From positions 3,580-67,579 of IMG/VR virus record IMGVR_UViG_3300033562_000691: a stretch of DNA of 64,000 nucleotides, one strand, 5' to 3'. Source of the DNA: a virus. Taxonomy: Duplodnaviria; Caudoviricetes. A program made the translations under genes and the position numbers. Below, one piece after another: positions 38,176 to 58,440 of the stretch. Under the pieces are notes generated by a model. That model was not told where the DNA came from, did not search any database, and saw only the letters and a program-made list of their open reading frames with translations. The first letter of the stretch is position 1. Every line of letters begins with the position of its first letter.

Positions 38176-40679
38176 ATGCCTACCTTTCCTCTTTTCATTG
38201 TTGTTTTTTTCCTACTTAACAGGTAACGGGTACTATCACCGCAGTGATCCTCACCGGTCGTATCAACATCATCAGGATTTTTTGCATCTCTTTGCAGTTG
38301 TGGAATTGTCCGTATATGATGAACTGCATTTGGGAAGAAATACAAATGTGGTTGCTCCATATTTCCTTTCTTTGCGGCTTCCAGCATTGTCCGAATCAAT
38401 GCCCATCCAGCTTTACGTGACCCCGGCCCTTTATAGCTGCGCTGCCAGTACAGTTTGTGCTTACCCATATTTGCCCCGATAGAAGTACCATCAGCAACAT
38501 TCCAGATTGAATTATCAGCAGGTCCAATCTTTACCTTTATTCCTGCATAATTATTCATAAATGGATCGTATGTCCTGTGCATGCGCTCCAATTGCTTATC
38601 TAGGGTAAGTGTTCTTTTTGCTATGGTTGCAGTGGTTGCCATATCTCCTTTATTTGGCTCTCCATTCCATCCATAAATTTCGTCGATTATTATAACACTA
38701 CCCTTGGGTATATGTATAGGACAATTTTCTGGCTGATCTCCGTTACATGTGGCCCCATATGTTACACTCCAAGGACGTGAAGAACCCCAGTCAAAACTAC
38801 GCTGTACCTTCCACGTATAAGGAATAATGAATGGATCAAGAACATGGATCTTGGTATTCCACACATCGGAGAAAAATCCACCAATGACAAGATCCCATGA
38901 TGCCTGTACCCATGCTTTGCGAAGCATCTCATTATTCTCAGTCATGGATATGAGCTTTGCTTTGTAATGCGGATCAGCTTCAAGCAAGGACTTGTTATCT
39001 TCAAGATCAACAAATATATGAGTGCGTGTCATCCCATCTTTGTCTGTGTACACACGCCGCTCTTTCACTGTATTGATGAACCGATCCTTAACCCACTGGT
39101 GGCCGGGACCACTGGGGTTACAGGTAGCTCTGTACTTGCTGACGATCTTTGGATTTGATGAACGGTTACAGGACATCAGTTTCAAGTACACATCAGGCAC
39201 AGGATGGTTCGTCAACTCCTCCCATCCAATCCAAGGATACTCATGCCCATGGTACTGATCATAGTCATCTATGACACGGGCATAGTTAAACCAAAAAGTC
39301 TCACCATCAGGAAAAGTCCAAATGGATTTCTGTTCATTGAACTTGGCACCGGGAAATAAGCGAGGGAACCATTTTTTGGATTTCGCAATAACGTCCTTTA
39401 ACTCAGTGGTTGCCTCACGAAGCAGCAATCCTCGATAATCTGCTCCGTAACCAACACCAACTCCCTTGGCAAAATCCATCAGCAGTGTATCTGTATTATG
39501 TGTGACCACGAAATCATCTGTAAGGTATGTATGGTCAGCAGAATCTAAAGAAATACACTGCATATTCACATAACGATCTGTTTCAATGATATCAATTATG
39601 GATACATAGTCCTGATTCTGATCAGTCTTTTTGTTTTGCAGGAATTTCAACTTGTGAGGAGTTTTTACAATCTGTTTGTCCGTGTTGATGTATAGTCGGA
39701 ATACCTTTCCACGTGTGCAGGTGCTTCCTTTTATATTGTGTTCCTCACCTTCTCTATTGTCTATAGACTTCCTACATCGTATCCCAAGGCTGCGTAGAAT
39801 CCATGCCATGTCGTCAATAAGCTGTTCGCTGGTATTGGTAAACTCACCATGCCCACTTTTCAGAATATGCCCATCTGTATCCATTAACCCTTGAATCAAT
39901 TCAAGTCGCTGCTGGGTAGAACTGAACTTGTAGATTGAGGGAATGAATTTCTGCTTACATGCAATATCTAGCCCCAATTGACGAATGTAAAACGATAATT
40001 CATTGCGCACCCTATACACATTCGTAAGGTGTTTGTCCTTTCCATTCACAGAAGTGATTGTATAGTTATTATTTGTGCTCGAATCATACTTTATTTCAAA
40101 GTTTGGCAGATGCTTCTTGAAGTAGTCAAGGATGAATTCATCATCAGTTGCTATCTTTGGGGTTAGTGTGGTCAAGGTTCCATTGCCAAGTAAGCATCCC
40201 AGTATGTAAGGATCTATCGGCAAGGACTTCTTCATAAACTTGACAGGTTTGCAGTTCGGTACTTTGAACTTGTACTCTGGGCCTTTAGGTTTATCATATT
40301 TGATGCCCTGTTGGAGCATGTCTTTGACAGACAGTACCTTGTGCTGTTTCTGTATGTTGCGAACACTCCAAAGATGATCATCGCTGCAGCGCACCTGTCT
40401 ACCATCTTGTAAAACAACAACGAATACCTGCTTCTTCTCCCGTTGAGGGAACACCCCATTAACACGATGGAGCAGACCATCTCCCCCGTAAACGAGATCT
40501 CCTACTTTGATGTCCCCCATTGTGGTATCTCTTTCTGAAGAAAACAACGCAGAATCAATAGGTTGCGCTTTCCCACCGCCACGGTTGCCCCAGAATAGGG
40601 CTTCCCAAACAGGACATTTCAATGCCCGTTCTTGTCCTCCGGGCCAAGGTTTCCAAATTACTTGTAATCGCCTAGACAT
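38172..40679 (-). CDS. terL: Terminase large subunit, intein-containing precursor
   Basis: Walker A GNRGGGK|T restored after intein removal, Walker B WIGWEELT, RATCNP, nuclease RSFDWG and EDHCGDSTRY. Confidence 0.92.
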   Translation of the reverse strand: MSRRLQVIWKPWPGGQERALKCPVWEALFWGNRGGGKAQPIDSALFSSERDTTMGDIKVGDLVYGGDGLLHRVNGVFPQREKKQVFVVVLQDGRQVRCSDDHLWSVRNIQKQHKVLSVKDMLQQGIKYDKPKGPEYKFKVPNCKPVKFMKKSLPIDPYILGCLLGNGTLTTLTPKIATDDEFILDYFKKHLPNFEIKYDSSTNNNYTITSVNGKDKHLTNVYRVRNELSFYIRQLGLDIACKQKFIPSIYKFSSTQQRLELIQGLMDTDGHILKSGHGEFTNTSEQLIDDMAWILRSLGIRCRKSIDNREGEEHNIKGSTCTRGKVFRLYINTDKQIVKTPHKLKFLQNKKTDQNQDYVSIIDIIETDRYVNMQCISLDSADHTYLTDDFVVTHNTDTLLMDFAKGVGVGYGADYRGLLLREATTELKDVIAKSKKWFPRLFPGAKFNEQKSIWTFPDGETFWFNYARVIDDYDQYHGHEYPWIGWEELTNHPVPDVYLKLMSCNRSSNPKIVSKYRATCNPSGPGHQWVKDRFINTVKERRVYTDKDGMTRTHIFVDLEDNKSLLEADPHYKAKLISMTENNEMLRKAWVQASWDLVIGGFFSDVWNTKIHVLDPFIIPYTWKVQRSFDWGSSRPWSVTYGATCNGDQPENCPIHIPKGSVIIIDEIYGWNGEPNKGDMATTATIAKRTLTLDKQLERMHRTYDPFMNNYAGIKVKIGPADNSIWNVADGTSIGANMGKHKLYWQRSYKGPGSRKAGWALIRTMLEAAKKGNMEQPHLYFFPNAVHHIRTIPQLQRDAKNPDDVDTTGEDHCGDSTRYLLSRKKTTMKRGKVGI
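39495..40568 (-). mobile_element. 358-aa intein with LAGLIDADG endonuclease domain, Ala1/WCT (class 3-type)
   Basis: Starts AQP after Lys37. Block B CSDDHLW, block F MQCISLD, block G VVTHN|T. Endonuclease motifs PYILGCLLGNG and LIQGLMDTDG. Confidence 0.88.
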
Positions 40680-44131: not shown

Positions 44132-44147
44132 TCCGCTCGCAAGGTGG

Positions 44148-44430
44148 GCAAGGGGAAAAAATCTTTCCCCTTGCTCCTTTCTTTCATCCTGTCGGGCAGT
44201 AGTCGGGCAGGATGAAACAAGGGAAAAATCACCTTTCCCCTGCTCTTTGAAAATTGTTTTCCCCTTTGCCTTGCTGGTTATATCTTTCCCGCGCTGTTCA
44301 TCGGCGGAAAGATATTGATCCTATAACCAGCCGGGATTGTTCAAGAAAATTTGTTCACGGTGAATGAAACGGCTAGAGCAAAAGTAAAGCGGATTCATTC
44401 ATGATGAATGAAACGGCAAAGGGGAAAAAC
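44148..44430 (+). ncRNA. Candidate structured non-coding RNA / 3' UTR
   Basis: Stems 44148-58/44164-74, 44182-91/44208-17, 44257-70/44415-28 (14 bp) and 44273-82/44322-31. No ORF with an RBS. Confidence 0.5.
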
Positions 44431-44812
44431 GAGAAAGTGAACAATGCAAAGCGAAAAGAAAAACGGTCGGCATGTTCGGCCGAATTACTTTTTGTTGTCT
44501 GCGTTATATCTGTGCGCATACGTTATATGCGATTTATTCGAGCAGAATTTATTCACGGTGAATAAAAAATATAACGCAAGTTATAAGGAAATTCGAGAAA
44601 AAACGCTTATTCTGCAATAACGCGATTTTTGAAAATTTTCTGACTTTTGCATTATTCACGTAAAATTAGGAATTGAACGCTTCCACGATTATGGGCGTTT
44701 ATATCTTAAATTTTGCCTTCTGTTCTGCCCTGCTTCCCCATAGGGTAGAGCAGAGAAAATTTAGAAAGATTTATTCACGGTGAATAAAAACATTCCTACA
44801 AAGGAGAAGAGA

Positions 44813-44935
44813 ATGAAAAAATTAGTGATTGCTCTAATCGTTATCATGTGTGTAGTAGGATTGCACTTTGGCTATTCTGCTATTCAGTCTGTCAAAGCTG
44901 TGCAGACTGAACGATTGGCTCAGTTGAATTTCTGA
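44813..44935 (+). CDS. 40-aa membrane peptide
   Basis: Own translation MKKLVIALIVIMCVVGLHFGYSAIQ...; AAGGAG RBS after a palindrome. Confidence 0.7.
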   Translation: MKKLVIALIVIMCVVGLHFGYSAIQSVKAVQTERLAQLNF

Positions 44936-45996
44936 TCTGATAAACCTTTACTGTCGGGGGGAGTATTGAGAATTTTTGAATTATTCTCTGTCGGGGATTT
45001 TTATTTCGGGCAGAGAATAATTTGTGAATTCTTTTTTAATCCATGATTTATTCATGGTGAATAAAAAGTTATAACATGTTCTTTTGTGGAACGTGGGCGG
45101 TTATATCTTTCTGACCGTTTTGATCTTAATAGCATTCTGCCCCGTGTGACGGGGACCATTCTCAGGTAACAGAGAGTTCTGTAGACGGGGAATGATGGGA
45201 ATTTAGGAAGAGAAAAGATTGATCCTTCTGATAGGACAGTTGTAGAGTTTTCGAGGACGTTCTGCTTTGCGGAATAGCCTGTAGCCTTGAAAATTTAGGA
45301 AGGTTATATTATCCATGATTTTGTGGGTTGACGTGTAATGCAAGGCTATCTTAGCGGGTAGTTTATCTTTTCTGCTGTCTTTCTAGTTTCTGCATTTCTG
45401 CTGTACAGGATCACCTTGAGGATGATATGTGATGGGGTTTTAAAGGCTGATCAGGGCGAACCATTGCATTGACAGGTGCGTTCGGCGCATGCTGCTGAAT
45501 TGTGTAAATTCCCTCGGGTACATTGAAAAATATCCGGAACGGCTTTCTTTGGAAAATTGGGGAAAGTTGGTGTGGTGTGTGGAATTTATTCACAAATAAA
45601 GTATAGCCTGATCAAACCTTGACTAGAGATTAGCGACCTCTTTTTAAGGGCGGCGGATTTATTCACCGGGAATAAATCCATAAGGGGAAGGGCAGGGATT
45701 TTCTGTGATGTTCCAAGGACGATTCCTGCCCTTCAAATGGGGTGATTTTTTGGTATAAATTTTTATGTCTCAGCGATTTTCATTGGGTTCAGACTGGGAA
45801 TTTTTATGCGTACTTTCCAAAGCTGAAAATGATGAAAATTGATGAGATTGTGGAAAGATTTATTCATGGTGAATAAATGCACTTTGAATGAAAATTTCCT
45901 AGCAAAAATTTGTAGATGTATTATGCAAAGAGTTCCTTGCCCCGACTAGAGGGGATTACATAACGGTTTTATTCACCATGAATAAAAGGAGGGTAC

Positions 45997-46167
45997 ATGA
46001 TCGAATATGAGGTAGTCAAAAATAATCGCATCTGGTTCTTCAAGGAGGATCAGAAAAAGAAAGCCATGGACAAGGCCCGCAAAATGCGCGGGTCGTGTTC
46101 CATGATAGTCGTGGATCAGAATGGAATAGTGACGGATAGCACCATTTTGATCGACGAAGAAAAATAG
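45997..46167 (+). CDS. 56-aa hypothetical protein
   Basis: MIEYEVVKNNRIW...; AGGAGG RBS; bracketed by palindromes 45968 and 46169. Confidence 0.75.
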   Translation: MIEYEVVKNNRIWFFKEDQKKKAMDKARKMRGSCSMIVVDQNGIVTDSTILIDEEK

Positions 46168-46196
46168 TTTTATTCACCATGAATAAAGGAGAAAAT

Positions 46197-46457
46197 ATGA
46201 AGACATTCCCTTCTGCTGCTGCACTGCATTTGCTGTTGCAGGCAGAGCATAAACTGCAGAATGAGTTGGACTGCATTATGCGTGCATTCAACTCTTGCGC
46301 CAACCCGAGTCAGGAGTTGTTGGCTCGGGGGATAGAAGTGGAAGAAATGCTGCGAATTACGAAGCAGAAGAGGGTAAATTGTAGCAAGCAGAGGACGAAG
46401 TACTTCTGCATTCCGGAAAAGATTTTTCGCTATCTGGGGACACATCCCCAGTATTGA
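46197..46457 (+). CDS. Hypothetical coiled-coil protein
   Basis: Start moved to MKTFPS after GGAG. The track start (MNK) lies inside the palindrome. Confidence 0.7.
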   Translation: MKTFPSAAALHLLLQAEHKLQNELDCIMRAFNSCANPSQELLARGIEVEEMLRITKQKRVNCSKQRTKYFCIPEKIFRYLGTHPQY

Positions 46458-46578
46458 ATAACCGGAACGTGAGCCGGTAATCTACAAATTTTGTGGCTTG
46501 CCGGTTCACTTCTGTTTATTCCACAACGGATTTATTCATGGTGAATAAATCTAAATCAACCAGAACAAAAGAGGATTC

Positions 46579-47031
46579 ATGCTGTTTCTGATCAGAGGAT
46601 TGCCGGGTTCCGGCAAAAGCACATATGCCAGATCCTTGAAAAAGGGGATGGACTGTATGTGCATCCATGTTGAGGCGGATATGTTCTTCACTGACATATC
46701 CGGCAACTATAACTACAATCCGGAGAAAGTAGTAGAGGCACACGAATGGTGCCAGCGAGTATGCCGCGATGCCCTGAATATTGGGGCAGCGGTGATTGTT
46801 GCGAATACGTTCACCCGTGTATGGGAAATGCAGCCGTACATGGACATGGCAACGGATCTTGGAATCCCATATGCCATTGTCCATGTAATTGGTGCTTTCC
46901 AAAATATTCACGGAGTACCGGAGGAGGTTATCGAAAAAATGCGTGAACGGTGGGAACCGTGCGCAGAGGAGTATGAGATTGAATTCTGTGGGGAGAATAA
47001 TCTCCCCAACTTACTTTATTATTCACGGTGA
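46579..47031 (+). CDS. AAA_33-like P-loop kinase/ATP-binding protein
   Basis: IRGLPGSGKST, EADMFF, IVANTFT, NIHGVPEEVIEKMRERWE. Confidence 0.85.
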   Translation: MLFLIRGLPGSGKSTYARSLKKGMDCMCIHVEADMFFTDISGNYNYNPEKVVEAHEWCQRVCRDALNIGAAVIVANTFTRVWEMQPYMDMATDLGIPYAIVHVIGAFQNIHGVPEEVIEKMRERWEPCAEEYEIEFCGENNLPNLLYYSR

Positions 47032-47045
47032 ATAAAGGAGGGAAT

Positions 47046-47342
47046 ATGATTTTTGAATTAGGTGATACCGGCACATACATCTTAGATCAAACTTGTAATT
47101 ACAAGATCCATTATCTATGCGACATTCCTAAAAGTGCCGCAGTTGTATGGGTTTGTGATTCAGATCAAACCCATCATCGGTTCTCGGATAGCCATGTGCT
47201 TCCGAGAATGATAGATGGAATAGTATACAACTGGCTTAATAAAAGATTTTACATCGTATCTGAAAGTATTGACGGAAATCTAATAGCCGTCTTCAATTAT
47301 GATGGAAACTACAAAGTGTATAAACTCGTAGACAGGCAATGA
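47046..47342 (+). CDS. Hypothetical protein
   Basis: GGAGGG RBS after palindrome 47018; its stop touches palindrome 47342. Confidence 0.7.
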   Translation: MIFELGDTGTYILDQTCNYKIHYLCDIPKSAAVVWVCDSDQTHHRFSDSHVLPRMIDGIVYNWLNKRFYIVSESIDGNLIAVFNYDGNYKVYKLVDRQ

Positions 47343-47371
47343 TCATTCACCATGAATAAAAAGGAGGAGCC

Positions 47372-47593
47372 ATGCAGGACAAACATGGAGAACGCTGGTC
47401 TAGCGAAGACCAGTGGAAACTCATAGAGATGTACGCCAAAGGTGCATCTTACACAAAAATCTCAAACGCACTGGGGAGGTCAGTGCGGGCATGCTATGGG
47501 AGGGTTCACAGCATCAAGAATTCGTTCAGGTTGCTGTCTGAACAATTGGATCTCAAAATTCTGGAGGAACTGGAGCATGAAAAAATTAGCTGA
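47372..47593 (+). CDS. Small helix-turn-helix (GcrA/Myb-like) protein
   Basis: WSSEDQWKLIEMYAKGASYTKISNALGRSVRACYGRV; AGGAGG RBS. Confidence 0.7.
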   Translation: MQDKHGERWSSEDQWKLIEMYAKGASYTKISNALGRSVRACYGRVHSIKNSFRLLSEQLDLKILEELEHEKIS

Positions 47594-47819
47594 TGGCGAG
47601 ATCCTGCCATTCATTGCAGGGGATACGCCCCTGAACGAGACGGAATTCTGGGCATGGCTGAAAGAGCATCCGGAACAGGACAGTTTCGTGCATGCTTTGC
47701 TTGCATTCTGTCCGAAGTTTAATAAGGAGGAATACTATATCTCCAAAGAACAGATCCGTAGTTATCGGTACACGCACCAGCATTTCTTCTGGTGCAAATA
47801 CCATGACGTTGAAATTTGA
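47577..47819 (+). CDS. Hypothetical protein
   Basis: GGAG RBS supports the MKKLADGE start. Confidence 0.65.
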   Translation: MKKLADGEILPFIAGDTPLNETEFWAWLKEHPEQDSFVHALLAFCPKFNKEEYYISKEQIRSYRYTHQHFFWCKYHDVEI

Positions 47820-47873
47820 AGTTTAAAACTTATTCACGGTGAATAAAACCACCAATAAAAGGGAGGAAAGAGC

Positions 47874-47996
47874 ATGAAAAAGGAATATCGTTGCAAAGTG
47901 TGTGGACGGAAAACTGGCGGGAAGCACCACCTGTGCCTGCTCTGCAAAGAGGCATGGGAGGTAATTGTGGAAATCCTCCTGCTTGGGGGAAAATGA
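47874..47996 (+). CDS. 40-aa zinc-ribbon peptide
   Basis: Own translation MKKEYRCKVCGRKTGGKHHLCLLCKEAWE...; GGGAGG RBS. Confidence 0.65.
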   Translation: MKKEYRCKVCGRKTGGKHHLCLLCKEAWEVIVEILLLGGK

Positions 47997-48045
47997 TATA
48001 ACTGTAGCCACATTTCTGGAACCATTTGATTCCAAGGAGGTTGTG

Positions 48046-48174
48046 ATGAAAGAAACACTATGGGTAAGGAGGGAAAAGGCGCAGGAATTAGCGGATGATC
48101 TCCGCTGTTGTGGATTGACTGTTGAAATGATTTTTCACCCTGAAATCGTAGAACTCAGGGTTTATTCACGATGA
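48046..48174 (+). CDS. 42-aa hypothetical protein
   Basis: AAGGAGG RBS; its stop lies within palindrome 48161. Confidence 0.65.
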   Translation: MKETLWVRREKAQELADDLRCCGLTVEMIFHPEIVELRVYSR

Positions 48175-48202
48175 ATAAACCCGTAACCAAAAGGAGAATG
48201 CC

Positions 48203-48544
48203 ATGATTGAGAATTTGTATGTTGTCCCTGAGTATGTAATCGAGAAATACGTGACGGATGCCTACGCATTAGGATATTGCAGGGATCACAGAATCAATCC
48301 GTTGGATCAGACGGAATATTCGGATTGTAGTGTATCCACTGCAGCAAAGATGATGGGGTACAAGGTTTTTAACACGGCACTGCCTTTAAATTGGGTGCAT
48401 AAAGTCCAACAGGAGTACGGAATCAATCCAGTTGGGAAGGTGGTGTGGTGCTATGATGCGCCTAAAACCTACGGATACCCTGCACCGATCACAAGGGAGG
48501 GAGATGTGTTGTGTAAAATTCTGGAGTACATTTCTTCACGGTGA
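48203..48544 (+). CDS. Hypothetical protein
   Basis: AAGGAG RBS; its stop lies within palindrome 48531. Confidence 0.75.
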   Translation: MIENLYVVPEYVIEKYVTDAYALGYCRDHRINPLDQTEYSDCSVSTAAKMMGYKVFNTALPLNWVHKVQQEYGINPVGKVVWCYDAPKTYGYPAPITREGDVLCKILEYISSR

Positions 48545-48548
48545 ATAA

Positions 48549-48788
48549 ATGAAAAGATTTTATGCAGAAATGATGATAGGGGATTTTCATCCCCTTGGGT
48601 CGTTCAGCAAGTACATTCTGGATGCAAGGTACTCGCTGGATAATATGATTCGCCATTGCGAAGAACATCTACAGAGGAGGAAAGAGTACAACGGTTTTCG
48701 GATCATTAAGGTAAATGGATCTCGTTTGTTCAGTGATCCATCAAGGGTAGTTTACGAAAGAATCCACAAGGAGAACGGAAATGATTGA
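48549..48788 (+). CDS. Hypothetical protein
   Basis: Starts at the last base of a palindrome; overlaps the next ORF. Confidence 0.6.
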   Translation: MKRFYAEMMIGDFHPLGSFSKYILDARYSLDNMIRHCEEHLQRRKEYNGFRIIKVNGSRLFSDPSRVVYERIHKENGND

Positions 48789-49074
48789 ATTTAATTTCAT
48801 CGGAAACAACAGCGTGCGAAAATGCCACGAACTACGTCCGGGGGCAATTTTCACACCGGCAGATGTAACGGCCAACAAAACTGTGCTGTTCCAAGTGTCT
48901 GCTATAGACAATCTTCCTGATGATGACGGGAAATCTGTCTACGTGGTACACGGAGATCCGGACTGCGTAATTTGCCAGAGACTTCATAATGGAATGCTGG
49001 AATGCATCCACACCGATACTGACTGCATTGTATACGATGTAAAAATGGATCTTATCCCGGAGGGAATGGAATAA
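48781..49074 (+). CDS. Hypothetical protein
   Basis: AAGGAG RBS. Confidence 0.7.
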   Translation: MIEFNFIGNNSVRKCHELRPGAIFTPADVTANKTVLFQVSAIDNLPDDDGKSVYVVHGDPDCVICQRLHNGMLECIHTDTDCIVYDVKMDLIPEGME

Positions 49075-49250
49075 TGGAAGTAATTTCTGATGTGTTGGAA
49101 CGAACCGGAGGGAAGAAAGAGAATAACAAGACATTCTCTTTCCCGTCTCTACAGGCAGCGGGTGAGTTCGCCCGCTTCATCTTTGGCCGGAAGGATCTGA
49201 AAATCTGGAAAGTCACTCGGTTTGGAGAATGGAGAGTTTATCTGCAGTAA
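49074..49250 (+). CDS. 58-aa hypothetical protein
   Basis: Own translation MEVISDVLERTGG...WRVYLQ*; TAATG coupling; its stop abuts palindrome 49250. Confidence 0.65.
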   Translation: MEVISDVLERTGGKKENNKTFSFPSLQAAGEFARFIFGRKDLKIWKVTRFGEWRVYLQ

Positions 49251-49279
49251 TTATTCACCATGAATAAAAGGAGTATACA

Positions 49280-49675
49280 ATGGAATATATGGAAACACTC
49301 AGAACAGACGTAAAGAGGGACAAACGGAAAATCCGCTGTATCAATTCATCAATTAGTGGATTTTCATCCACTACCCTGCGCTTTGGGGATTACTTCCTAT
49401 ACAGGGAGGGTCCGACAGGACCATTGCAGTTTGCAAAGTGCCATGGAAGAGTGTGCCCGGAGAGGCAGATTGATCCGAAGGACAAAACCGGATATATGAT
49501 TTTGGCACTGGTGATCAGTACAAATCATATATTCTCAATGGAACGATGGGTATCCCCTGAAGATGTGGAAGAGGTAATTCCAGTGGAACGGGTCAGTCCT
49601 CATTTGGAAGAGATGTTCCATTCATTGATGGAAAACCTGAACTCATGGACTAGGGAAATGCGCAGAGTGCGTTGA
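49280..49675 (+). CDS. Hypothetical protein
   Basis: AAGGAG RBS; bracketed exactly by two palindromes. Confidence 0.75.
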   Translation: MEYMETLRTDVKRDKRKIRCINSSISGFSSTTLRFGDYFLYREGPTGPLQFAKCHGRVCPERQIDPKDKTGYMILALVISTNHIFSMERWVSPEDVEEVIPVERVSPHLEEMFHSLMENLNSWTREMRRVR

Positions 49676-49705
49676 TTTATTCACCATGAATAAAAGGAGT
49701 ATGTG

Positions 49706-49978
49706 ATGAATCGTATTTTGACAGAGATTGAAGAGATACTACCTTATTTCTGGGCATGTGCACTCGCTTATGGCGACACTGACACGTTTACAGATGAGGA
49801 CATGGCAGCTTTCCTTGCATGGAACGGTGATCATATCGGATGGAATATGGTTCATGTGGGGGAAGATAAAGGATTCTGCCACACACACGATGCAAGCAAG
49901 TATGGTGTGCTGGCATGTGATTGCTGTACATATACATTCAATGTGTATCGGAAATGGGAGAAAAAACATGAGAAGTAA
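49706..49978 (+). CDS. Hypothetical protein
   Basis: AAGGAG RBS after palindrome 49676. Confidence 0.7.
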   Translation: MNRILTEIEEILPYFWACALAYGDTDTFTDEDMAAFLAWNGDHIGWNMVHVGEDKGFCHTHDASKYGVLACDCCTYTFNVYRKWEKKHEK

Positions 49979-50306
49979 ATGTCTGAAACACATGGGATTG
50001 ACATTCAATCCGAACCATCCACATGGAAACATGCCAGCACTTGAAGGGGAGGTTACAATACAATTCCACACATGGTTGTGCCGGGTACTTATGAGTAACC
50101 ATATGGATGACTATTGGTATCAAAGAAAGCAAGAAGTTCGTCCGTTCTTCCAAGGCGGCTCAGTTTGCAGACATGATGGGTGGGTGCTTATTGAATTCTG
50201 GACAAAGGATGCAGAAGCTGCCCGTATCTTCTGTGAAGATATGTGTATGGCTTTCATCAAGAATGATCCAATTTCCCGCAAACTATATGGAGAATGTGAT
50301 GACTAA
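49968..50306 (+). CDS. Hypothetical protein
   Basis: GGGAG RBS supports the MRSKCLK start. Confidence 0.65.
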   Translation: MRSKCLKHMGLTFNPNHPHGNMPALEGEVTIQFHTWLCRVLMSNHMDDYWYQRKQEVRPFFQGGSVCRHDGWVLIEFWTKDAEAARIFCEDMCMAFIKNDPISRKLYGECDD

Positions 50307-50697
50307 GAAAAAACTGTACAAGGCATTGGTTCGGAACATCTGCAACTATAAACATCATATGGAGCAAGGTAATCAGGAGCTTGCTGATAAATTTGAAGAT
50401 GAAGTCATACGCCTTGCTAAAGAACATCTTCCATCTGGAAGTGGATTCGATGCAGGTACACATGTGGACATTGAAAAATCAACAGAAGAAAAACTGGTAA
50501 TCACCACCGATTTCCATCATATGGATGAACATGGAGGTTATGATGGATGGTCAAGTGATATCAAGGTTATTGTCCGTGCATCACTTGCATGGGATTACAG
50601 GATCACTGTCACCGGAATCAGACACAAAGACAGATGGCACATGCAAGATTATGTTTTGGATACATTCACATACGCACTGAACAAAGAAGTGGAATAA
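50299..50697 (+). CDS. Hypothetical protein
   Basis: GGAG RBS supports the MTKKKLY start; LPSGSGFDAG...FHHMDEHGGYDGW. Confidence 0.7.
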   Translation: MTKKKLYKALVRNICNYKHHMEQGNQELADKFEDEVIRLAKEHLPSGSGFDAGTHVDIEKSTEEKLVITTDFHHMDEHGGYDGWSSDIKVIVRASLAWDYRITVTGIRHKDRWHMQDYVLDTFTYALNKEVE

Positions 50698-50710
50698 CTG
50701 GAGACAAGGT

Positions 50711-50908
50711 ATGCCAAAACAGAAATCAATCCATCTGCGGAGTATACGTTTATTCAACAATGCGGGGATTGAATTCCCTGTATGTTGTATTCCAAAAAGT
50801 GGTCCCCTTGATGTAGATAAATCCAGATTGGATTCTACGGGGAACATGAGTGAAGTAACCTGTAAAAAGTGCATCAAAAAGATTGAAAAACTTAAACACC
50901 AATTCTAA
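50711..50908 (+). CDS. Small Cys-containing hypothetical protein
   Basis: GGAG RBS; VTCKKC motif. Confidence 0.65.
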   Translation: MPKQKSIHLRSIRLFNNAGIEFPVCCIPKSGPLDVDKSRLDSTGNMSEVTCKKCIKKIEKLKHQF

Positions 50909-50920
50909 CCGGAGAAGATC

Positions 50921-51082
50921 ATGCGGAAAATTATCATTGCTGTATTGGCTATTACTGTAATCCATTGCAGTTTCGATGAGGGTGTTGTCCGCTTTATTGT
51001 GGATATGCCTGACAACGTGTCCAATGTGGATGCGTATGCAAAACGTCTCTGTGAGATCATTGCAAGGGAAGAGGGACGTTGA
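50921..51082 (+). CDS. 53-aa hypothetical protein
   Basis: Own translation MRKIIIAVLAITVIHCSF...; its stop is immediately followed by palindrome 51083. Confidence 0.6.
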   Translation: MRKIIIAVLAITVIHCSFDEGVVRFIVDMPDNVSNVDAYAKRLCEIIAREEGR

Positions 51083-51112
51083 TTTATTCACCATGAATAA
51101 AACGGAGGAAAC

Positions 51113-51400
51113 ATGAAAAATAAAACAACACATCAATTCTTCAATGAGTACGCTCCAAAAGCACGAATGTATGCCAGCCTATGGAGTGGTTCCAAATATG
51201 CTGGATACACCAAGGAACAATGGACAGCCATGTATCTTCAAGATCCATACTTGAATCAGTTAGGAAATCCATTCTTTGATAAGTACTGGATTCTTTCAAA
51301 GGCAATCAACTCATTATCCATGAACTGCTGTGCCATGAAGCATTACATCATCTACCATGTAGTTGGAGCAGAGCCTGAGTTTATAGAGAAAGAAGCATGA
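51113..51400 (+). CDS. Hypothetical protein
   Basis: GGAGG RBS after a palindrome. Confidence 0.75.
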   Translation: MKNKTTHQFFNEYAPKARMYASLWSGSKYAGYTKEQWTAMYLQDPYLNQLGNPFFDKYWILSKAINSLSMNCCAMKHYIIYHVVGAEPEFIEKEA

Positions 51401-51543
51401 CGATCTCAAGTGTGTTTCTGATTGCGTGTGTCGTGCTCTGGATCGCTTCCGCTGCCTTTACCATATGGTACACGATAAACTGGCTTTATCAGGCTTTGTT
51501 TCCTCCTGAAGAAAAGACAGAAGATGATGTAGAAGAGAAATGA
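51397..51543 (+). CDS. 48-aa membrane peptide
   Basis: Own translation MTISSVFLIACVVLWIASAAFTIWYTINW...; its stop is immediately followed by palindrome 51544. Confidence 0.6.
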   Translation: MTISSVFLIACVVLWIASAAFTIWYTINWLYQALFPPEEKTEDDVEEK

Positions 51544-51573
51544 TTTATTCACCATGAATAAAAGGAGAACACT

Positions 51574-52146
51574 ATGAAAAAGTTTACAAAGAAGACAATA
51601 ACCTTTACACATGACGTAAAGGGAATTGGAGAGATCAAAACGACATGCAGGACGTTTGGATCACCCATCTGTAAAGGAAAGACCACTGAGCGAGCAGGAA
51701 CGTGCACAGCATGCACACAGGAAGAGAGTGTCATAACCGCCTGCATGGTGCAAGGCAAAAAGCTGTCCCTGAAGCCTGAGAAGAAAGCAAGAGCAAAGAA
51801 GGAAGGCACCGGTCGCAAAGGCGGACCACGTGGCCCAAGAACAACCCATGAAAATTCTCCGTATGCAATTGTAGTGCGTGGATTGCACAAAGGAGTCTCC
51901 AAGGACAAGATCATCCAGAAGATGATTGCCAACGGGGTGAGTGAAGCGAACGCAAAGAACAAGTATGGATCGGTGTCCTGCTGTTTCAATGCATTCATGG
52001 GAAATTCCAAACGAGATGGTTCCATTGTTCGCTATGCTGCATGGATCACATCAGGGCGACAGGGCGAAGCTCCGCAGATTGACGCAGGCTCTCGCTCATA
52101 CACAGAGAAGACATACGCAGTTATGAAACAATTGGAGGTCTTGTGA
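51574..52146 (+). CDS. Basic, Cys-containing hypothetical protein
   Basis: AAGGAG RBS; C-x6-C...C-x2-C cluster; Lys-rich linker. Confidence 0.75.
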   Translation: MKKFTKKTITFTHDVKGIGEIKTTCRTFGSPICKGKTTERAGTCTACTQEESVITACMVQGKKLSLKPEKKARAKKEGTGRKGGPRGPRTTHENSPYAIVVRGLHKGVSKDKIIQKMIANGVSEANAKNKYGSVSCCFNAFMGNSKRDGSIVRYAAWITSGRQGEAPQIDAGSRSYTEKTYAVMKQLEVL

Positions 52147-52349
52147 AAGTATATAATTTCTCTAAGTGCATAGTGGAAAGTGCAGAGATAAAAACTTGTC
52201 CACGCTGTAAGGGATTTGGAGCACTTAGCACAGATGGTGATGGGCTTTGCTTCTTATGCAGAGGACGTGGAAAGATCTGGATGGCAAAATCGGGCAGTGG
52301 ATGGTGCCGGAGGTTATGGGCAGATCTGGAAAGTTCTATACTTTACTGA
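52143..52349 (+). CDS. DnaJ-type zinc-finger small protein
   Basis: CPRCKGFG...CFLCRGRG (CxxCxGxG twice); GGAGG RBS. Confidence 0.7.
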   Translation: MKVYNFSKCIVESAEIKTCPRCKGFGALSTDGDGLCFLCRGRGKIWMAKSGSGWCRRLWADLESSILY

Positions 52350-52371
52350 GATTCCAAAGGGAGATTCTACA

Positions 52372-52812
52372 ATGCCTACATATGAGCATAACAGAGACAG
52401 GGTTGCCCAGCGGGTAAAGCATACATTGTATGCTTTATACAAGTGCCTTTACCATTGGGAATTTATGTGTGCCACTGGAACAATGCGTAAGCGTGAATTC
52501 TGGGGGTGCCGTTACTTTAAGCAGGTCAAGTACTACTATATTCCAGTAGCTGAATGTTATACTTGTGCAAATATGATCAGCAATGCTGCCAGTAGTGCAT
52601 TGGCGTACACAACAGGAGGGTGTCGTCGTTGTGCTCTCACTGGATTTGCATGGTATAAAGAGTGTACATCATGGCGTTCTTCCTTATATGCTGACTGGCA
52701 GAGGGCAAACACTGACGCTGATCGCGCCATATATGCGCAGAAAATGGTGGATGCTATCAAGGAAGCTATCAAGTACCACGAGATGCGAAGACTAAGGAAA
52801 TACAATGGATGA
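52372..52812 (+). CDS. Cys-rich hypothetical protein
   Basis: AAGGGGAG RBS supports the MPTYEH start; CYTC, CRRC motifs. Confidence 0.7.
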   Translation: MPTYEHNRDRVAQRVKHTLYALYKCLYHWEFMCATGTMRKREFWGCRYFKQVKYYYIPVAECYTCANMISNAASSALAYTTGGCRRCALTGFAWYKECTSWRSSLYADWQRANTDADRAIYAQKMVDAIKEAIKYHEMRRLRKYNG

Positions 52813-53020
52813 AATACGCATTATCGAAGTCTATAAAACACGGACCTGTTTTAACATAACATCAGGACATAGGTGGACAGAACACTATGGAGGGGTGACA
52901 GCCTATGAAGTAGCCGGAGGAGGATTCATCCGCACAAAACACAGAACTCTGAAAGGAGCAGAGGCTGAAGCAGCAAGACGTAGATCCATGCGTGAGAAAT
53001 TTCCCGAATACTTCTTATAA
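52805..53020 (+). CDS. Hypothetical protein
   Basis: Coupled to the upstream ORF; ends 5 nt before the last palindrome. Confidence 0.65.
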   Translation: MDEIRIIEVYKTRTCFNITSGHRWTEHYGGVTAYEVAGGGFIRTKHRTLKGAEAEAARRRSMREKFPEYFL

Positions 53021-53064
53021 CCAAATTTATTCACGATGAATAAATAACAACCAAGGAGAACGCA

Positions 53065-53268
53065 ATGGCCGACATGCAGAGAGATAATGAGAATAAAGAA
53101 TACAGTGATGACTGCATCGAAGAGTTGGCGAGGCACATCATTGATGCTATGGATATGGATGATCTTGTTGATTATGCAAATGCACAGATGCGAGATTACT
53201 TACATTCATTGTCCTATGAAGAAGTAAGTGATGTCATCGACGATAGCGACTTTGGAGGGTGTGAATGA
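53065..53268 (+). CDS. Small acidic protein
   Basis: AAGGAG RBS; Asp/Glu-rich. Confidence 0.7.
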   Translation: MADMQRDNENKEYSDDCIEELARHIIDAMDMDDLVDYANAQMRDYLHSLSYEEVSDVIDDSDFGGCE

Positions 53269-53972
53269 TGGATCAAAAGAAACAAGGAATCCTGAACAGA
53301 ATTGTCAAGTTGTTGGCCCTGTCTATTGACCAACAGGGTACGCCGGAAGGTGATACTGCTGAGGATGCAGCGGCACGCTTGATGATGAAATATTCCATCT
53401 CTGAAGCAGAGTTGCAGGCTGCAAAGTTTGACTCTGGTAATGAGGAAGTTCTGGAAGATGAGGAGGGGCTTGACATCCTGTTTGATGAAAAGCGGAAAGT
53501 CAACCAGTGGTTTGCACAGACTGCAATCAGTATCGGTTCCACGTTTGGGTGCAAGGTTTATCTCTCATCATACAAAGGGACTGTACATTTTGTAGGATTG
53601 GAACGAGACATTGAAACCTGCACATACTTTGCAGTGGTTCTGAAGAATTTCATGGAAGCAAAAGCATGGGAGCTGTTTCCGAATAGTTATGCAAAACGTG
53701 GTGACTTTTACTTTGGAGCATGGGCAAGTATCCATGATCGACTGCAAAGTATGAAAGCGGCCATGAAAGATGTAATGGAAGAGCATGTAAACGGTGAACT
53801 CATTGTACTCAAGGATCAACTTGTGGCAAAGGAGTACGCTGCATTGAGTGAGCGGCTCGGGTTCACGAAACGTAAACCACCGAAGGTTTCAAAGAACCTC
53901 AACAGAGATGCATATCTTGCCGGAGCAGCAGCAGGGAAAAATGCACCCATGAACTTGGGAATCTCTAAGTAA
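53265..53972 (+). CDS. DUF2786-family protein
   Basis: ILNRIVKLLALS...EGDTAEDAAARLMMKYSI N-terminus; AYLAGAAAG near the C-terminus. Confidence 0.8.
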   Translation: MMDQKKQGILNRIVKLLALSIDQQGTPEGDTAEDAAARLMMKYSISEAELQAAKFDSGNEEVLEDEEGLDILFDEKRKVNQWFAQTAISIGSTFGCKVYLSSYKGTVHFVGLERDIETCTYFAVVLKNFMEAKAWELFPNSYAKRGDFYFGAWASIHDRLQSMKAAMKDVMEEHVNGELIVLKDQLVAKEYAALSERLGFTKRKPPKVSKNLNRDAYLAGAAAGKNAPMNLGISK

Positions 53973-54064
53973 TTCAAGTAGTTATAATGTAGTTGACAGA
54001 TAATTCAGTATATAGTAATCATCTAATGCTCAATGACGAGCATAAATCACACGGGAGAAATACC

Positions 54065-54991
54065 ATGAAGAGCAACGAGAGCGTATCCAATCTGGTAGAG
54101 TTCGCAAACGATAACGGTCTGTCCATCGCTGGGGTAGAGTCTATCCCTGAACTGTCCATTGCAGAAATTCTGACCTCCAATCCATTCGATGATAATGATG
54201 AGGATCTGTACTATGCACCGGGCAAGTTCATCACCATGGCAAAAGTTGATGGAAAGGTATTCCATCATCGGCAAGTGTCTGAGCAGTATCGTGTAACTCC
54301 CTATGCAGATACGATCAGGATCACTCTGGATTCCATTCTGCAGCAATCTCCTGAGTTTGGAAAGCCGGAAATCAAATTGAATTTCGTTCCCGGTGGTGGA
54401 CGGATGTTTGCGGAATATCGCTTCCCTGAAGTTCCGCAGAACTTGGCCCCTTCCAAAAAGAAACAAGATCCTGTTATCCCCAGAATCATCGTCAAAGACA
54501 GTATTGATCTGTCTGGTCGGTTCTCGGCTGTGTCTGGTGTGTTCCGTCTGGTGTGCAGCAACGGTATGATCGTTGCACATCCGGACTTCAAGGCTGAAAA
54601 ATTCTTTATGATGCATAAGTCCCATGCCTATAATTTGGACAATGCATTGGAAAGCCTGAACACATCGTTGAAGAAAATCTCTGAAGCAACTGATTTATGG
54701 AAGGCATACATGAAGGAAAAGATCACCACGTTGCAGTTGGCTGATGTCATGGAAGCATCCAACATGTCTCTCCGTGCACAGGAGAAAGTACTGCAACTGC
54801 CCATCATTGGAACTGACACAACTCTGCTCAATTCTGTCAAGCAGGGACGTGTAAATGCATGGACAGTGCTCAATGCATTGACGCAGTTTGCAACCCATGA
54901 AGTGGAGAACGTGACCACCTCCGTGGATCTGCAAGAGAGTGCTCTTGCTGCCATGGATAGTGCCCTTGGCTTGACTGCAGTAAATTTCTGA
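54065..54991 (+). CDS. DUF932/DUF945-family protein
   Basis: VSEQYRV...GVFRLVCSNGMIV...NAWTVLNALTQFATH. Start moved to the ATG after GGGAG. Confidence 0.8.
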   Translation: MKSNESVSNLVEFANDNGLSIAGVESIPELSIAEILTSNPFDDNDEDLYYAPGKFITMAKVDGKVFHHRQVSEQYRVTPYADTIRITLDSILQQSPEFGKPEIKLNFVPGGGRMFAEYRFPEVPQNLAPSKKKQDPVIPRIIVKDSIDLSGRFSAVSGVFRLVCSNGMIVAHPDFKAEKFFMMHKSHAYNLDNALESLNTSLKKISEATDLWKAYMKEKITTLQLADVMEASNMSLRAQEKVLQLPIIGTDTTLLNSVKQGRVNAWTVLNALTQFATHEVENVTTSVDLQESALAAMDSALGLTAVNF

Positions 54992-55000
54992 TCCAATAAT

Positions 55001-55025
55001 TGGAGGGGAGGTTTCCTCCCCTCCA
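55001..55025 (+). terminator. 10-bp GC-rich hairpin after the DUF932 gene
   Basis: TGGAGGGGAG-GTTTC-CTCCCCTCCA; no strong U-tract. Confidence 0.5.
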
Positions 55026-55049
55026 TCCATTCACAAAGGAGATATAATC

Positions 55050-55556
55050 ATGCGAATTATGGAAGTTAAAGTATACCCTTTTGCAGAACTTTCCAAAGAG
55101 GCACAAGAGAATGCATTAAACAATTTACGTGACCTCAATGTGGATCATGATTGGTGGGATTATGTATATGAAGATGCTGAGCGTATAGGGTTAAAGCTAA
55201 CTGGATTTGCCCTATATCGGAACAGGCATGCTTCTGGAGAATTCACTGAATACGCCGAAATTGTTGCTGCACGTATCATCGAAGAGCACGGACCTGACTG
55301 TGAAACCAGAAAAACAGCAGAAGCCTATCTGGAAGAACGTGAAAGAACTATAAAGGAAAATCATGCTGACATGGAAGATGAGTACTGTGCACATGATCTT
55401 TGCCAAGACATAGACACAGAATTTCTCAGATCACTTCTGGAAGACTATGCTATTATGTTGGAAAAAGAATATGAGTACAGAACCAGTGATGAGAGTATCA
55501 AAGAGAGCATTGAATCAAACGAATATGAATTCACTGAAGATGGCAAATTAGTATAG
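55050..55556 (+). CDS. Conserved acidic phage hypothetical protein
   Basis: VYPFAELSKEAQENAL...DWWDYVYEDA...EYEYRTSDE...EYEFTEDG; AAGGAG RBS. Confidence 0.75.
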   Translation: MRIMEVKVYPFAELSKEAQENALNNLRDLNVDHDWWDYVYEDAERIGLKLTGFALYRNRHASGEFTEYAEIVAARIIEEHGPDCETRKTAEAYLEERERTIKENHADMEDEYCAHDLCQDIDTEFLRSLLEDYAIMLEKEYEYRTSDESIKESIESNEYEFTEDGKLV

Positions 55557-55604
55557 AAATCAGATAAATTCCACTTCAATAATCCACATAAAAGGGATAT
55601 AACC

Positions 55605-56330
55605 ATGCTGCAAATAGATTCGTTGATCATAGAGACAACCCGCCGCTGTAATCTTTCGTGTGGTCACTGTTTACGCGGAATGTGGCAGAATATAGACATG
55701 AGTATGGATCACATTGAATCCCTGCTCAGTGAAATTGGTTATATTGGAACTATCACGTTTTCTGGAGGTGAGCCGGGACTTGCTCCAAATGTAATTGCGG
55801 ACACTATCACTTTATTGAATGAGGGTGGTGTCGATGTGCATTCTGCATATGTTGCAACAAATGGAACTGTACAAGATATGGAATTTGTACACGCACTGCT
55901 TAACCTTGCTGCATATGTGGATGACGAACTATACGTGAAAATTTCCAGAGATGAATTTCACGAAATGGAATTCGATTATTATCATAAACAATCGCTTCTG
56001 CGTTTTCTGTCTTTTGTCCATGAAGACACATGGACAATCAGCAATCCTATAGCTGAGGGAAATGCAAACAATAATGGACTTCCCAACAAAACACCCAACA
56101 GGGAAGAGCGATTCCTTGTTGATGTGCGCGATGATGATGATACGTTGTGCATCACTGAAGGCAACCTGTATCTGAATGTGCATGGTGATATCATCGCCGG
56201 ATGTGATTGGTCCTATAAATCACAAGACGCGTATAAAATAACCAATGTTTGCCGTAGCAATTGGGTGGAAGAACTGACCGCATATGTTATGGAACACAAG
56301 GAGGAAGAATGGGTATCATATCAGCAGTGA
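55605..56330 (+). CDS. Radical SAM protein
   Basis: IETTRRCNLSCGHC (CxxxCxxC), ITFSGGEP, VATNG. Confidence 0.9.
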   Translation: MLQIDSLIIETTRRCNLSCGHCLRGMWQNIDMSMDHIESLLSEIGYIGTITFSGGEPGLAPNVIADTITLLNEGGVDVHSAYVATNGTVQDMEFVHALLNLAAYVDDELYVKISRDEFHEMEFDYYHKQSLLRFLSFVHEDTWTISNPIAEGNANNNGLPNKTPNREERFLVDVRDDDDTLCITEGNLYLNVHGDIIAGCDWSYKSQDAYKITNVCRSNWVEELTAYVMEHKEEEWVSYQQ

Positions 56331-56381
56331 TCTGTTTCTATCTATTCATTCGTGTCTGCAAACTTATCTGGGAGATTGGAA

Positions 56382-56714
56382 ATGACATCATATTGGGATG
56401 AAATCGTAATTCCGCTGTACTTCGGAGATATTCCAGTCGAAATGATTATTACAGATTTTGCATATAATCCGGGAGAACCTCCTGTAATGCCATCCATGAA
56501 TGATCCGGGAAATCCTGGATCTGGTGCTGAGTATGAGGTACTTGAATGGCATATTGAATTCCCTGAATCCATAAGTGGTGTTCATATCATGTGCACACAG
56601 CAAATGAAAGAAAGCAGGAGGCTGGCAGAAAAAATACATGCCGACAAAAATTCGTGGTGGTATGAATTTGTAGAGAAGGCGGATGAAAGTCTAAAATGGA
56701 GGAATGCCATATGA
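56382..56714 (+). CDS. Hypothetical protein
   Basis: GGGAG RBS supports the MTSYWDE start. Confidence 0.6.
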   Translation: MTSYWDEIVIPLYFGDIPVEMIITDFAYNPGEPPVMPSMNDPGNPGSGAEYEVLEWHIEFPESISGVHIMCTQQMKESRRLAEKIHADKNSWWYEFVEKADESLKWRNAI

Positions 56715-57073
56715 GAATAAGCAGAGCACTGCGCCCATATGTTGTTATTCTCAACGGTCCTGTTCCTGCTGGATATGATGCACTTCTGAATATAACATCC
56801 AAGGTGGAATCAGAATTACAAGATTCTGAATATATCCACATGCTGCATGCAGCAGGACCAACAACAAGAATGGCATTCGATAGTGTAAAGGAAGCTCTGA
56901 CACAACACAACCATACTGAGATGTTTCGGTATATTCCATCTCGGGTTGAAAACATATCTTTGGATATGCATGCACCGAAGGGGTGTGCCTTTGTTGTATC
57001 CTTTGCCTATTATATCCCGGACAGATCACAAGTCAAATTTGTGAAACCACGCAGACAGGAGGTTCTGTTATGA
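56711..57073 (+). CDS. Hypothetical protein
   Basis: GGAGG RBS; ATGA overlap with the upstream stop. Confidence 0.65.
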   Translation: MRISRALRPYVVILNGPVPAGYDALLNITSKVESELQDSEYIHMLHAAGPTTRMAFDSVKEALTQHNHTEMFRYIPSRVENISLDMHAPKGCAFVVSFAYYIPDRSQVKFVKPRRQEVLL

Positions 57074-57282
57074 AAAAAGAAGATACCCTTATTATTAACC
57101 ATGTTGATCTGGTTCTGTTGGAACAGCAACGTCACTCACTGCATAGCCTGTACAACACATTGTGTATTAATCTGGAACCGCATCTAATAGCATACGATGA
57201 ATTCCAAGCATTAGCAGGCATACTGAATATGCTGGATGATTGGTCCGATGAAAAATGGCATGCCTCTGGAGGAAAAGTATGA
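57070..57282 (+). CDS. Hypothetical protein
   Basis: GGAGG RBS; ATGA overlap. Confidence 0.65.
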   Translation: MKKEDTLIINHVDLVLLEQQRHSLHSLYNTLCINLEPHLIAYDEFQALAGILNMLDDWSDEKWHASGGKV

Positions 57283-58430: not shown

Positions 58431-58440
58431 GGAGAATGAA

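Follow-up and report, generated by a model that had tools for sequence, protein, structure and literature searches.

A 19-bp palindrome, TTTATTCA-N3-TGAATAAA, recurs throughout the array of small early genes of an uncultured tailed phage (Duplodnaviria; Caudoviricetes), which we analysed in a 64,000-nucleotide stretch of viral DNA (positions 3,580 to 67,579 of IMG/VR record IMGVR_UViG_3300033562_000691; hereafter the window). The element is specific to a small clade of uncultured siphoviruses and, judged from its placement, appears to be a conserved intercistronic linker of the first rightward early block, which is rich in orphan open reading frames (ORFans). We tentatively propose, with somewhat less than even confidence, that it serves as the docking site of a dimeric, probably phage-encoded DNA-binding regulator of this block and that it doubles as a recombination linker.

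Distribution of the palindrome and its position between genes

The window holds 12 exact copies of the consensus, with 0.00 expected from dinucleotide-preserving shuffles, and 20 copies at up to three mismatches (1.03 expected; 4 in the richest shuffle). The whole set is confined to 8.7 kb (44350-53044). The window belongs to a 67,579-bp record that was judged about 61% complete, and the remainder of that record is free of further copies; a control pattern, the element read backwards, gave 0 matches. An earlier sequence-only reading of the window had counted about 20 copies in 8.7 kb and none elsewhere, and the scan of the whole record returned the same 20 and 0, at exactly the positions given there, with no sign of a spread outside this region. 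Nor had that reading recognised the sequence as a known element, and the palindrome is indeed not a catalogued one. Rfam gave 0 matches at gathering score in the whole window, a tRNA scan of the window found none, and megablast of the array against 50,697 phage records returned no match. On closer inspection its symmetry is that of a 9-1-9 dyad, TTTATTCAY-N-RTGAATAAA, which can equally be described as 8-3-8.

Among 2.9 million viral contigs, multi-copy arrays of this palindrome occur in only three relatives, G001, G002 and G003. At up to two mismatches a relative has 4, 13 or 22 copies, clustered as in the window. The symmetric variants TTTGTTCA..TGAACAAA and TTCATTCA..TGAATGAA were also scanned in the viral contigs, and no phage uses such a switched palindrome throughout. 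In 185,579 species genomes we found single chance copies only and no visible host regulon; three matches in one metagenome-assembled genome of the Syntrophorhabdaceae come from a repeated element and a single stray site and do not amount to a regulon. Since no species genome carries the site in multiple copies, its binder would probably be encoded by the phage. The site of a host global regulator was rejected, as CodY, Rex, ArgR and CRP boxes have a different arrangement of half-sites and no host genome is multi-copy.

The early gene block (44813-53268, plus strand) consists of about 27 small genes in cassettes of one to five coupled genes, nearly all of them ORFans with almost no matches in Pfam or PHROGs. 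When gene starts are required to be supported by a Shine-Dalgarno sequence (SD), 13 of the 17 non-overlapping gene junctions in this block hold a copy of the palindrome, compared with 0 of the 9 overlapping (coupled) junctions and none of the roughly 30 junctions in 53268-64000. No copy lies inside a gene. The placement at gene junctions that the sequence-only reading had described is thereby borne out, although that reading underplayed seven copies that stand in the leader of the block.

Upstream genes frequently end at or in the palindrome. Three of them use its own TGA as their stop codon, in the frame TCA-CGG/CGA-TGA (S-R-stop): the AAA_33 kinase-like gene 46579-47031, which ends in the inexact copy 47018-47036, the gene 48046-48174, which ends in the exact copy 48161-48179, and the gene 48203-48544, which ends in the inexact copy 48531-48549. 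Further stops (46167, 47342, 47819, 49250, 49675, 51082, 51543 and 53020) overlap position 1 of the palindrome or lie 0-9 nt before it; examples are the inexact copy 49250-49268, which follows the gene 49074-49250, and the exact copy 49676-49694 with its TGA-palindrome-AGGAG form. Both sets of stop codons had been listed in the sequence-only reading and hold base for base. The right arm of the palindrome contains stop codons in two frames.

Downstream, the SD (GGAG) starts 0-2 nt after eight copies, and the start codon follows 9-11 nt after them. At five copies the start codon is 20-29 nt downstream, as for the exact copy 44770-44788, 24 nt before the gene of a 40-aa membrane peptide (44813-44935), and for the inexact copy 47829-47847, 26 nt before the gene 47874-47996. 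At copy 48531 the last A of the palindrome (position 19) begins the ATG of the gene 48549-48788. An A tract follows the copies, with no T tract, and the bases ahead of the element are often GA. The centre is biased in orientation: among the 14 window copies with a gene start at most 30 nt downstream, nine have CNA and one has TNG. Beyond the 19 bp, the SD alone is conserved around the element. Linker identity between unrelated cassettes sometimes reaches through the SD to the start codon, and the same palindrome plus GGAGAAAATATGAA is found at 46169-46187 (an exact copy between the genes 45997-46167 and 46197-46457) and at copy 9823 of G003 (reverse-complemented L030 numbering).

The seven leader copies (44350-44548 and 45047-45968) lie within 1.85 kb of mostly non-coding DNA (44140-45990) and, except for the exact copy 45968-45986, which abuts the SD of the gene 45997-46167, they are not beside a gene start. 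The first copy (44350-44368) is the variant TTTGTTCA-CGG-TGAATGAA, with two mismatches that both give G.T pairs on the plus strand; its G003 orthologue reads TTTGTTCA/TGAACAAA. The second (44394-44412), 44 bp after the first, carries a symmetric double change, TTCATTCA-TGA-TGAATGAA. The exact copies 44548-44566, which sits in a nearly invariant non-coding block, and 45047-45065 are followed by TATAAC after 3 and 4 nt, respectively. Copy 45658-45676 has a G at position 12, a defect that is identical in G002 and G003, and 45859-45877 is exact.

Other features of this leader deserve mention in their own right. A 592-bp stretch between two palindromes (45066-45657) shows 88-90% conservation in G002 and G003 without containing a credible ORF, and could represent an origin or a non-coding RNA. 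Near its end stands an orphan partial copy, TTTATTCACAAATAAA (45585-45600), with an intact left arm and a truncated right arm, and apart from this partial copy, half-sites outside full copies occur at chance frequency. The regulatory region is also marked by a second small motif: the 8-bp palindrome GTTATAAC has only three copies in 64 kb (42445, 43029 and 45068), all at 42.4-45.1 kb, and GGTTATATCTT occurs twice (44276 and 45099), in the leader only.

Gain, loss and exchange of cassettes among relatives

We cut the four sequences at their palindromes and compared the resulting segments. Homologous array segments of the relatives are 76-97% identical to those of the window, save for one divergent cassette allele at 68%. 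Five whole-cassette insertions or deletions have a palindrome at both ends. Segments of 791 bp (at copy 45968) and 461 bp (at the exact copy 46531-46549) are present in G003 only, with a palindrome on each side, and a palindrome-flanked segment of 217 bp, also at copy 46531 in G003, is shared by G002 and G003 and missing from the window. The segment 45878-46529, between copies 45859 and 46531, is absent from G002; at the base level this deletion has left a single palindrome with the left flank of 45859 and the right flank of 46531. The cassette 51102-51543, bounded by the exact copies 51083-51101 and 51544-51562, is absent from G003. Two swaps to divergent alleles (68% and 76% identity versus about 90% in the neighbouring segments) show their shift in identity at palindromes. 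Further differences concern the copy 47342-47360 (ATCATTCA-CCA-TGAATAAA), which stands ahead of a helix-turn-helix (HTH) gene and has no counterpart there in G002 and G003, some 590 additional bp that follow immediately on copy 49250 in G003 and G001, and the gene 53065-53268 behind the last, exact copy (53026-53044), which is absent in G001, G003 and three of the run data sets described below.

Contigs from four other metagenome studies (the run data) present the same picture. Wastewater runs labelled RNA-Seq are probably DNA. Contigs from manure, wastewater and landfill show the joints 47036->47371 (run X2) and 51102->51573, the cassette 51102-51543 being lost in run X7, and run contigs branch off exactly at palindrome edges (45968, 45987, 46551, 47042, 48176, 49674 and 53060). 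Breakpoints lie within 30 bp of a copy in 12 of 17 cases among the relatives and in 19 of 37 among the runs, with 17.7% expected (P ~1e-6). The sequence-only reading had pointed to relatives as the place where gene gain and loss might break at the palindrome, and there the breakpoints do concentrate. As an evolutionary pattern, the role of the palindrome as a cassette boundary is well supported.

The mode of exchange can be narrowed down further. Several junctions lie in the SD or the start codon and not in the dyad, the order of cassettes is collinear in all relatives and has never changed, and the central triplets differ between copies that recombined. No tyrosine or serine recombinase was found in the four partial records, which amount to about 93 kb out of an estimated 110 kb; PF00589 has no match in G000-G003, with controls matched in 14 of 14 cases. 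Since neither an integrase nor a resolvase was found and a UvsX-like recombinase is encoded in G001, the shuffling resembles ordinary homologous exchange at the 19-33-bp linkers, filtered by selection, more than site-specific recombination. The sequence-only reading had considered a recombination site that lets accessory genes be shuffled as cassettes: the shuffling stands as a pattern, with its breakpoints at palindromes, and a dedicated site is not supported, no tyrosine or serine recombinase having been found in the four partial records.

The three related contigs (L012, L022 and L030) all end inside the array, at different places, which fits strain-level cassette variation tangling the assemblies. 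A search for intermediate relatives through the DUF932 neighbour yielded only three homologues, on short contigs. Among relatives of the large terminase at 41-53% identity, only L138 (terminase 41% identical) reaches a divergent early arm.

Constraint on the element and its possible function

Evidence on function comes from the pattern of change between orthologous copies in the window and in G003, G002 and G001. The core TTCA/TGAA never changed (0 of 272), while the outer arm positions changed in 26 of 272 cases and the three central bases in 12 of 102, at homologous flanks that changed in 111 of 940. For the window and G003 alone, the probability of a core count as low as 0/144, given the flank rate of 0.106, is about 1e-7. 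Two short inner half-sites are thus under strong sequence-specific constraint, and the centre is free. Invariant inner half-sites around a neutral centre are the signature of a dimer on duplex DNA, and the 8-3-8 (9-1-9) dyad falls in the size class of lambda-type operators. The sequence-only reading had named an operator or a phage-specific promoter for one dimeric regulator as its first option; the operator fits best, by its invariant half-sites, neutral centre and 8-3-8 format, and the promoter finds no room ahead of the SD.

We therefore lean towards the docking site introduced above. A dimer would bind the double-stranded DNA with one half-site, TTTATTCAY, per subunit, leaving the central 1-3 bp uncontacted, and a single protein at the leader sites and the 13 junctions could control the whole block at once. 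This control would most plausibly be a shut-off, exerted as an operator or roadblock like that of the repressors at Cluster A stoperators. No -35/-10 pair was found at the junction copies, and the array region has fewer promoter-like sites than shuffles; given the lack of sigma-70-type promoters between the cassettes, the block is probably one transcription unit and could be controlled by a roadblock. The leader copies, which stand away from start codons, are explained by an operator and not by an RNA device linked to ribosome-binding sites (RBS). If the two leader TATAAC sites were promoters, the dyad would stand in operator position, within the -35/-10 spacer. A by-product may be that the identical linkers of 19-33 bp (palindrome plus SD) act as homology patches for the UvsX-type recombination of the phage, so that a linker-flanked gene could be dropped, added or swapped while the upstream stop and the downstream SD are kept.

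Two phage proteins are candidate binders. The array itself encodes a 73-aa HTH protein (47372-47593, plus strand), which is found in this clade only and matches HTH_23 at E 9.5e-4, below the cut-off, and the transcriptional regulators of phrog_323 at E 2.7e-7. The second candidate is a CopG-like ribbon-helix-helix protein of 79 aa (58441-58680, plus strand), which matches phrog_7325 at E 1.1e-7 and has a structure model with two C-terminal helices.

Several observations speak against a regulator docked at the palindrome. These two putative binders are candidates named by family matches only, neither of which is tied to the site, and an early shut-off is no more than a guess. Neither an integrase nor any other gene for lysogeny was found in the four partial records (that of the window being about 61% complete), which would leave no prophage to silence and makes the analogy to an immunity repressor a loose one. 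The centres of the invariant cores are separated by 7 bp, a tighter spacing than that of classic HTH operators. The early arm of L138 lacks a palindrome array, so that the element is not needed for such a genome architecture. Breakpoints should in any case concentrate at gene boundaries, since recombinants in which a gene has been cut are lost to selection, and several (51393/51507, 52349/52732 and 49959/50278) lie at or near boundaries that are free of palindromes. A role in RNA could account for the fixed packing of stop, palindrome and SD and for the CNA/TNG bias of the centre, and so, equally, could common descent of a directional linker. Finally, the first two copies carry symmetric or G.U-compatible changes (TTCATTCA/TGAATGAA in the window; TTTGTTCA/TGAACAAA twice in G003) and sit within a covarying leader stem. 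With three sequences this is no more than a hint that, in the leader at any rate, the bases pair within RNA or single-stranded DNA; the symmetric changes could also come from template-switch repair of quasi-palindromes without selection.

The stem in question encloses copies 1 and 2 in a leader domain (44257-44428, plus strand) and pairs 44257-44270 with 44415-44428; the fold also takes in 44270-44330. It is a perfect 14-bp helix whose pairs are kept through double changes, CCCC/GGGG having become TTCC/GGAA in G003 and G002.

These leader changes, which either are symmetric or pass through G.U within a long-range stem that keeps its pairs, also belong to the case for the foremost alternative, a doubtful one in our judgement but one to be taken seriously: an RNA-level punctuation of one long transcript. 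Here the element would act as a hairpin of 8 bp with a 3-nt loop between stop and SD, at which an RNA-binding protein or ribonuclease represses translation, cuts the transcript or insulates each RBS. The tight stop-palindrome-SD-start packing, with the SD 0-2 nt after eight copies, and the location of all copies in one co-oriented block without internal promoters agree with such a role, and the frequent GA ahead of the element gives GA|UUU, which resembles the preference of RNase E. However, the hairpin is marginal: its folding energies (-4.0 to -6.7 kcal/mol, typically about -4) hardly go beyond those of shuffled sequences (z -0.5 to -2.2, about -1). The loop changes at the background rate around an invariant stem core, although a protein-recognised RNA hairpin would usually conserve its loop, and the other 18 copies show no covariation. 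T3->C, which arose independently four times, makes a C.A mismatch on the sense strand, and single changes produce C.A about as often as G.U. Moreover, the leader copies have no cistron to regulate, and an 8-bp stem is too short for RNase III. Pairing between neighbouring copies as an RNase III stalk was rejected, since only copies 1 and 2, at a distance of 44 bp, would pair favourably; by estimate, pairing between copies hundreds of bases apart is not favourable. The RNA hairpin for cutting a long early transcript into single-gene units, an option of the sequence-only reading, is thus a weak candidate, given its low folding energy, a least conserved loop and tolerated C.A mismatches.

An element with no regulatory function of its own seems unlikely to us, although together with the RNA-level role it is one of the two alternatives that still compete with the docking site. 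In this case the palindrome would be a linker only, a portable junction of stop and SD that is kept uniform by cassette exchange, through concerted evolution and through template switching at quasi-palindromes that repairs the arms. Identity that runs into SD and spacer between unrelated cassettes (46169 versus G003 9823), right-arm stops in two frames with three genes that end there, and the abundance of cassette polymorphism in several environments would all follow, and the symmetric changes could come from templated mutation without selection. The contrast between an invariant core (0/272) and outer arms near background is, however, hard to obtain from homogenisation alone, which should affect the repeat in its entirety; none of the seven leader copies links one gene to another, and a homology patch needs no dyad symmetry.

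Also improbable, in our estimate, is that the array as a whole is an integron-like but recombinase-free platform for accessory genes, in which the palindrome is a selected plug-and-play adaptor and not a regulatory site that recombines incidentally. The linker, with its two-frame stops, docking site and SD, would then let UvsX-type recombination capture, drop or swap any ORFan, and a captured gene would automatically gain a translation signal identical to that of the others and be switched on and off, like them, by the one protein that binds the palindrome.

A dedicated site-specific recombination site, at which a recombinase would act on the palindrome of an integron-like cassette platform, is very unlikely. 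Unrelated promoterless genes split by one palindrome do resemble an integron, and several indels run exactly from palindrome to palindrome; against this stand the failure to find a tyrosine or serine recombinase in the four partial records, the length of 19 bp, far shorter than attC, the junctions that vary among palindrome, SD and start codon, the collinear order and the differing central triplets. We give least credence of all to a phage-specific promoter ahead of each cassette: the element recurs before gene starts, as early promoters do in repeated cassettes of T4-type phages, and two leader copies have TATAAC at a -10-like distance from TTTATT, but a start site downstream of the palindrome would remove the SD that lies 0-2 nt behind eight copies, a perfect dyad would fire both ways, and no T7-type RNA polymerase gene was found in a search whose control was silent. 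An intrinsic terminator was rejected, as the element has no G/C run and no T tract and no copy is among the terminator-like sites.

Comparable arrays and the phage that carries this one

Comparable phage arrays are already known; among those in the literature, the palindromes of Cluster O mycobacteriophages and the promoter-early stem-loops (PeSLs) of T4-type phages come nearest. Cluster O phages carry a 17-bp repeat, TGTTCGG-N3-CCGAACA, for which dimeric regulators were proposed while the function was left open (Cresawn et al. 2015, PMC4351075). As in our window, this is a short perfect dyad, 7-3-7 instead of 8-3-8, whose 3-nt centre varies and whose copies number in the tens; it is absent from host and other phages, lies mostly in short intergenic gaps of one transcribed arm, and explains indels between relatives by recombination between two copies. 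The sequences are unrelated, GC-rich in Cluster O and AT-rich here, as are the phage lineages and hosts; about a third of the copies in Corndog lie within genes, compared with none here, and only the element described here is fused to stop and SD and confined to 8.7 kb.

The PeSLs of phages RB49 and phi1 (Arbiol et al. 2010, PMC2839356; 2014, PMC4122927) are likewise repeated intergenic cassettes among the small ORFans of hyperplastic early regions, and they extend from the upstream stop to the downstream SD. In both systems, recombination between copies explains insertions, deletions and replacements among close relatives, and a UvsX-type recombinase is present. With PeSLs, exchange between adjacent copies also gives rise to mini-circles. 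A PeSL is, however, a composite of a strong sigma-70 promoter and a stable G/C-rich terminator stem-loop, neither of which is found in our palindrome, a single AT-rich dyad of 19 bp in an apparent single operon.

At the stoperators of Cluster A mycobacteriophages, bound repressor stops elongation (PMC9283540, PMC6550527). In these phages, too, one short site recurs many times in the small gaps between the genes of operons, besides the operator of the early promoter. Stoperators differ in being asymmetric: these sites of 13-14 bp follow the direction of transcription, are recognised by a monomeric immunity repressor and occur throughout the genome of a temperate phage; our element is a symmetric dyad in one block only, with an orientation bias in the centre only and no lysogeny genes found. 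The temperate Streptomyces phage phiC31 has conserved inverted repeats (CIRs) of about 17 bp for its repressor; they number well above a dozen, lie for the most part in the early region, serve one phage regulator and are associated with early promoters of the phage itself.

Two further systems share the outward form. In integron attC arrays, unrelated promoterless small genes are each followed by a palindromic element and vary in presence and absence; attC sites are imperfect palindromes of 57-141 bp that are recombined by IntI as folded single strands, in contrast to the 19 bp and variable junctions of our array, for which no integrase was found. An attC site also has R''-L''/L'-R' boxes and extrahelical bases, while conservation around our 19 bp extends to the SD only. 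The early RNase III sites of T7 are repeated hairpin-capable elements between the cistrons of a long early transcript, with stems of about 20 bp or more and internal loops, where ours has 8 bp and is marginally stable.

The phage itself is a siphovirus with a very long tail, as follows from a leftward arm that encodes the portal, the major head protein, an intein-interrupted large terminase, a tape measure of 3345 aa and large tail proteins. No cultured relative or host was found, the portal being at most 28% identical to that of any isolate. Samples of anaerobic mat, digester or landfill type contain the phage. The tape measure (20742-30779, minus strand) implies the length of the tail, and a 2804-aa protein with Kelch-repeat and laminin-G-like domains (6933-15347, minus strand) is a likely host-adhesion fibre. 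The large terminase (38172-40679, minus strand) owes its 835 aa to an intein with a LAGLIDADG-type endonuclease domain; intein-free relatives of about 480 aa are roughly 60% identical. The intein assignment is based on a precomputed Pfam match (PF14528) of a near-identical homologue, and PF14890 (Intein_splicing) matches only more distant intein-bearing relatives.

The rightward arm opens with a single gene of 251 aa, behind which a strong terminator-like hairpin (44146-44176, plus strand) stands just ahead of the palindrome array; helicase, primase and other replication genes come after the array. G001 extends this genome rightwards beyond the window and encodes, besides the UvsX-like recombinase, its own replisome. 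Its set comprises the recombinase, a large DNA polymerase, clamp, clamp loader, DnaB-like helicase and replication initiator (L142:4691-5788, 10358-14125, 9099-10052 and 14136-15179; L143:4964-7681 and 8068-10086; all minus strand), which amounts to autonomous replication and recombination as in large lytic phages. Radical-SAM-domain proteins are also encoded in the replication arm, at 55605-56330 (plus strand) in the window and at L143:610-1782 (minus strand) in G001.

Early ORFan blocks are the store from which phages draw genes for host takeover and anti-defence, and their fast turnover is a standing question. The array described here is a clean case from an uncultured lineage, in which one constrained dyad marks the ends of cassettes across environments, and does so without promoter, terminator or integrase. 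Together with the Cluster O repeats and the PeSLs, it suggests that large phages have repeatedly arrived at conserved intergenic linkers that also act as patches for recombination. Identification of the binding factor would offer a handle on coordinated early-gene control in a phage group without a cultured member, and the element would also provide a natural standard junction for synthetic phage gene arrays.

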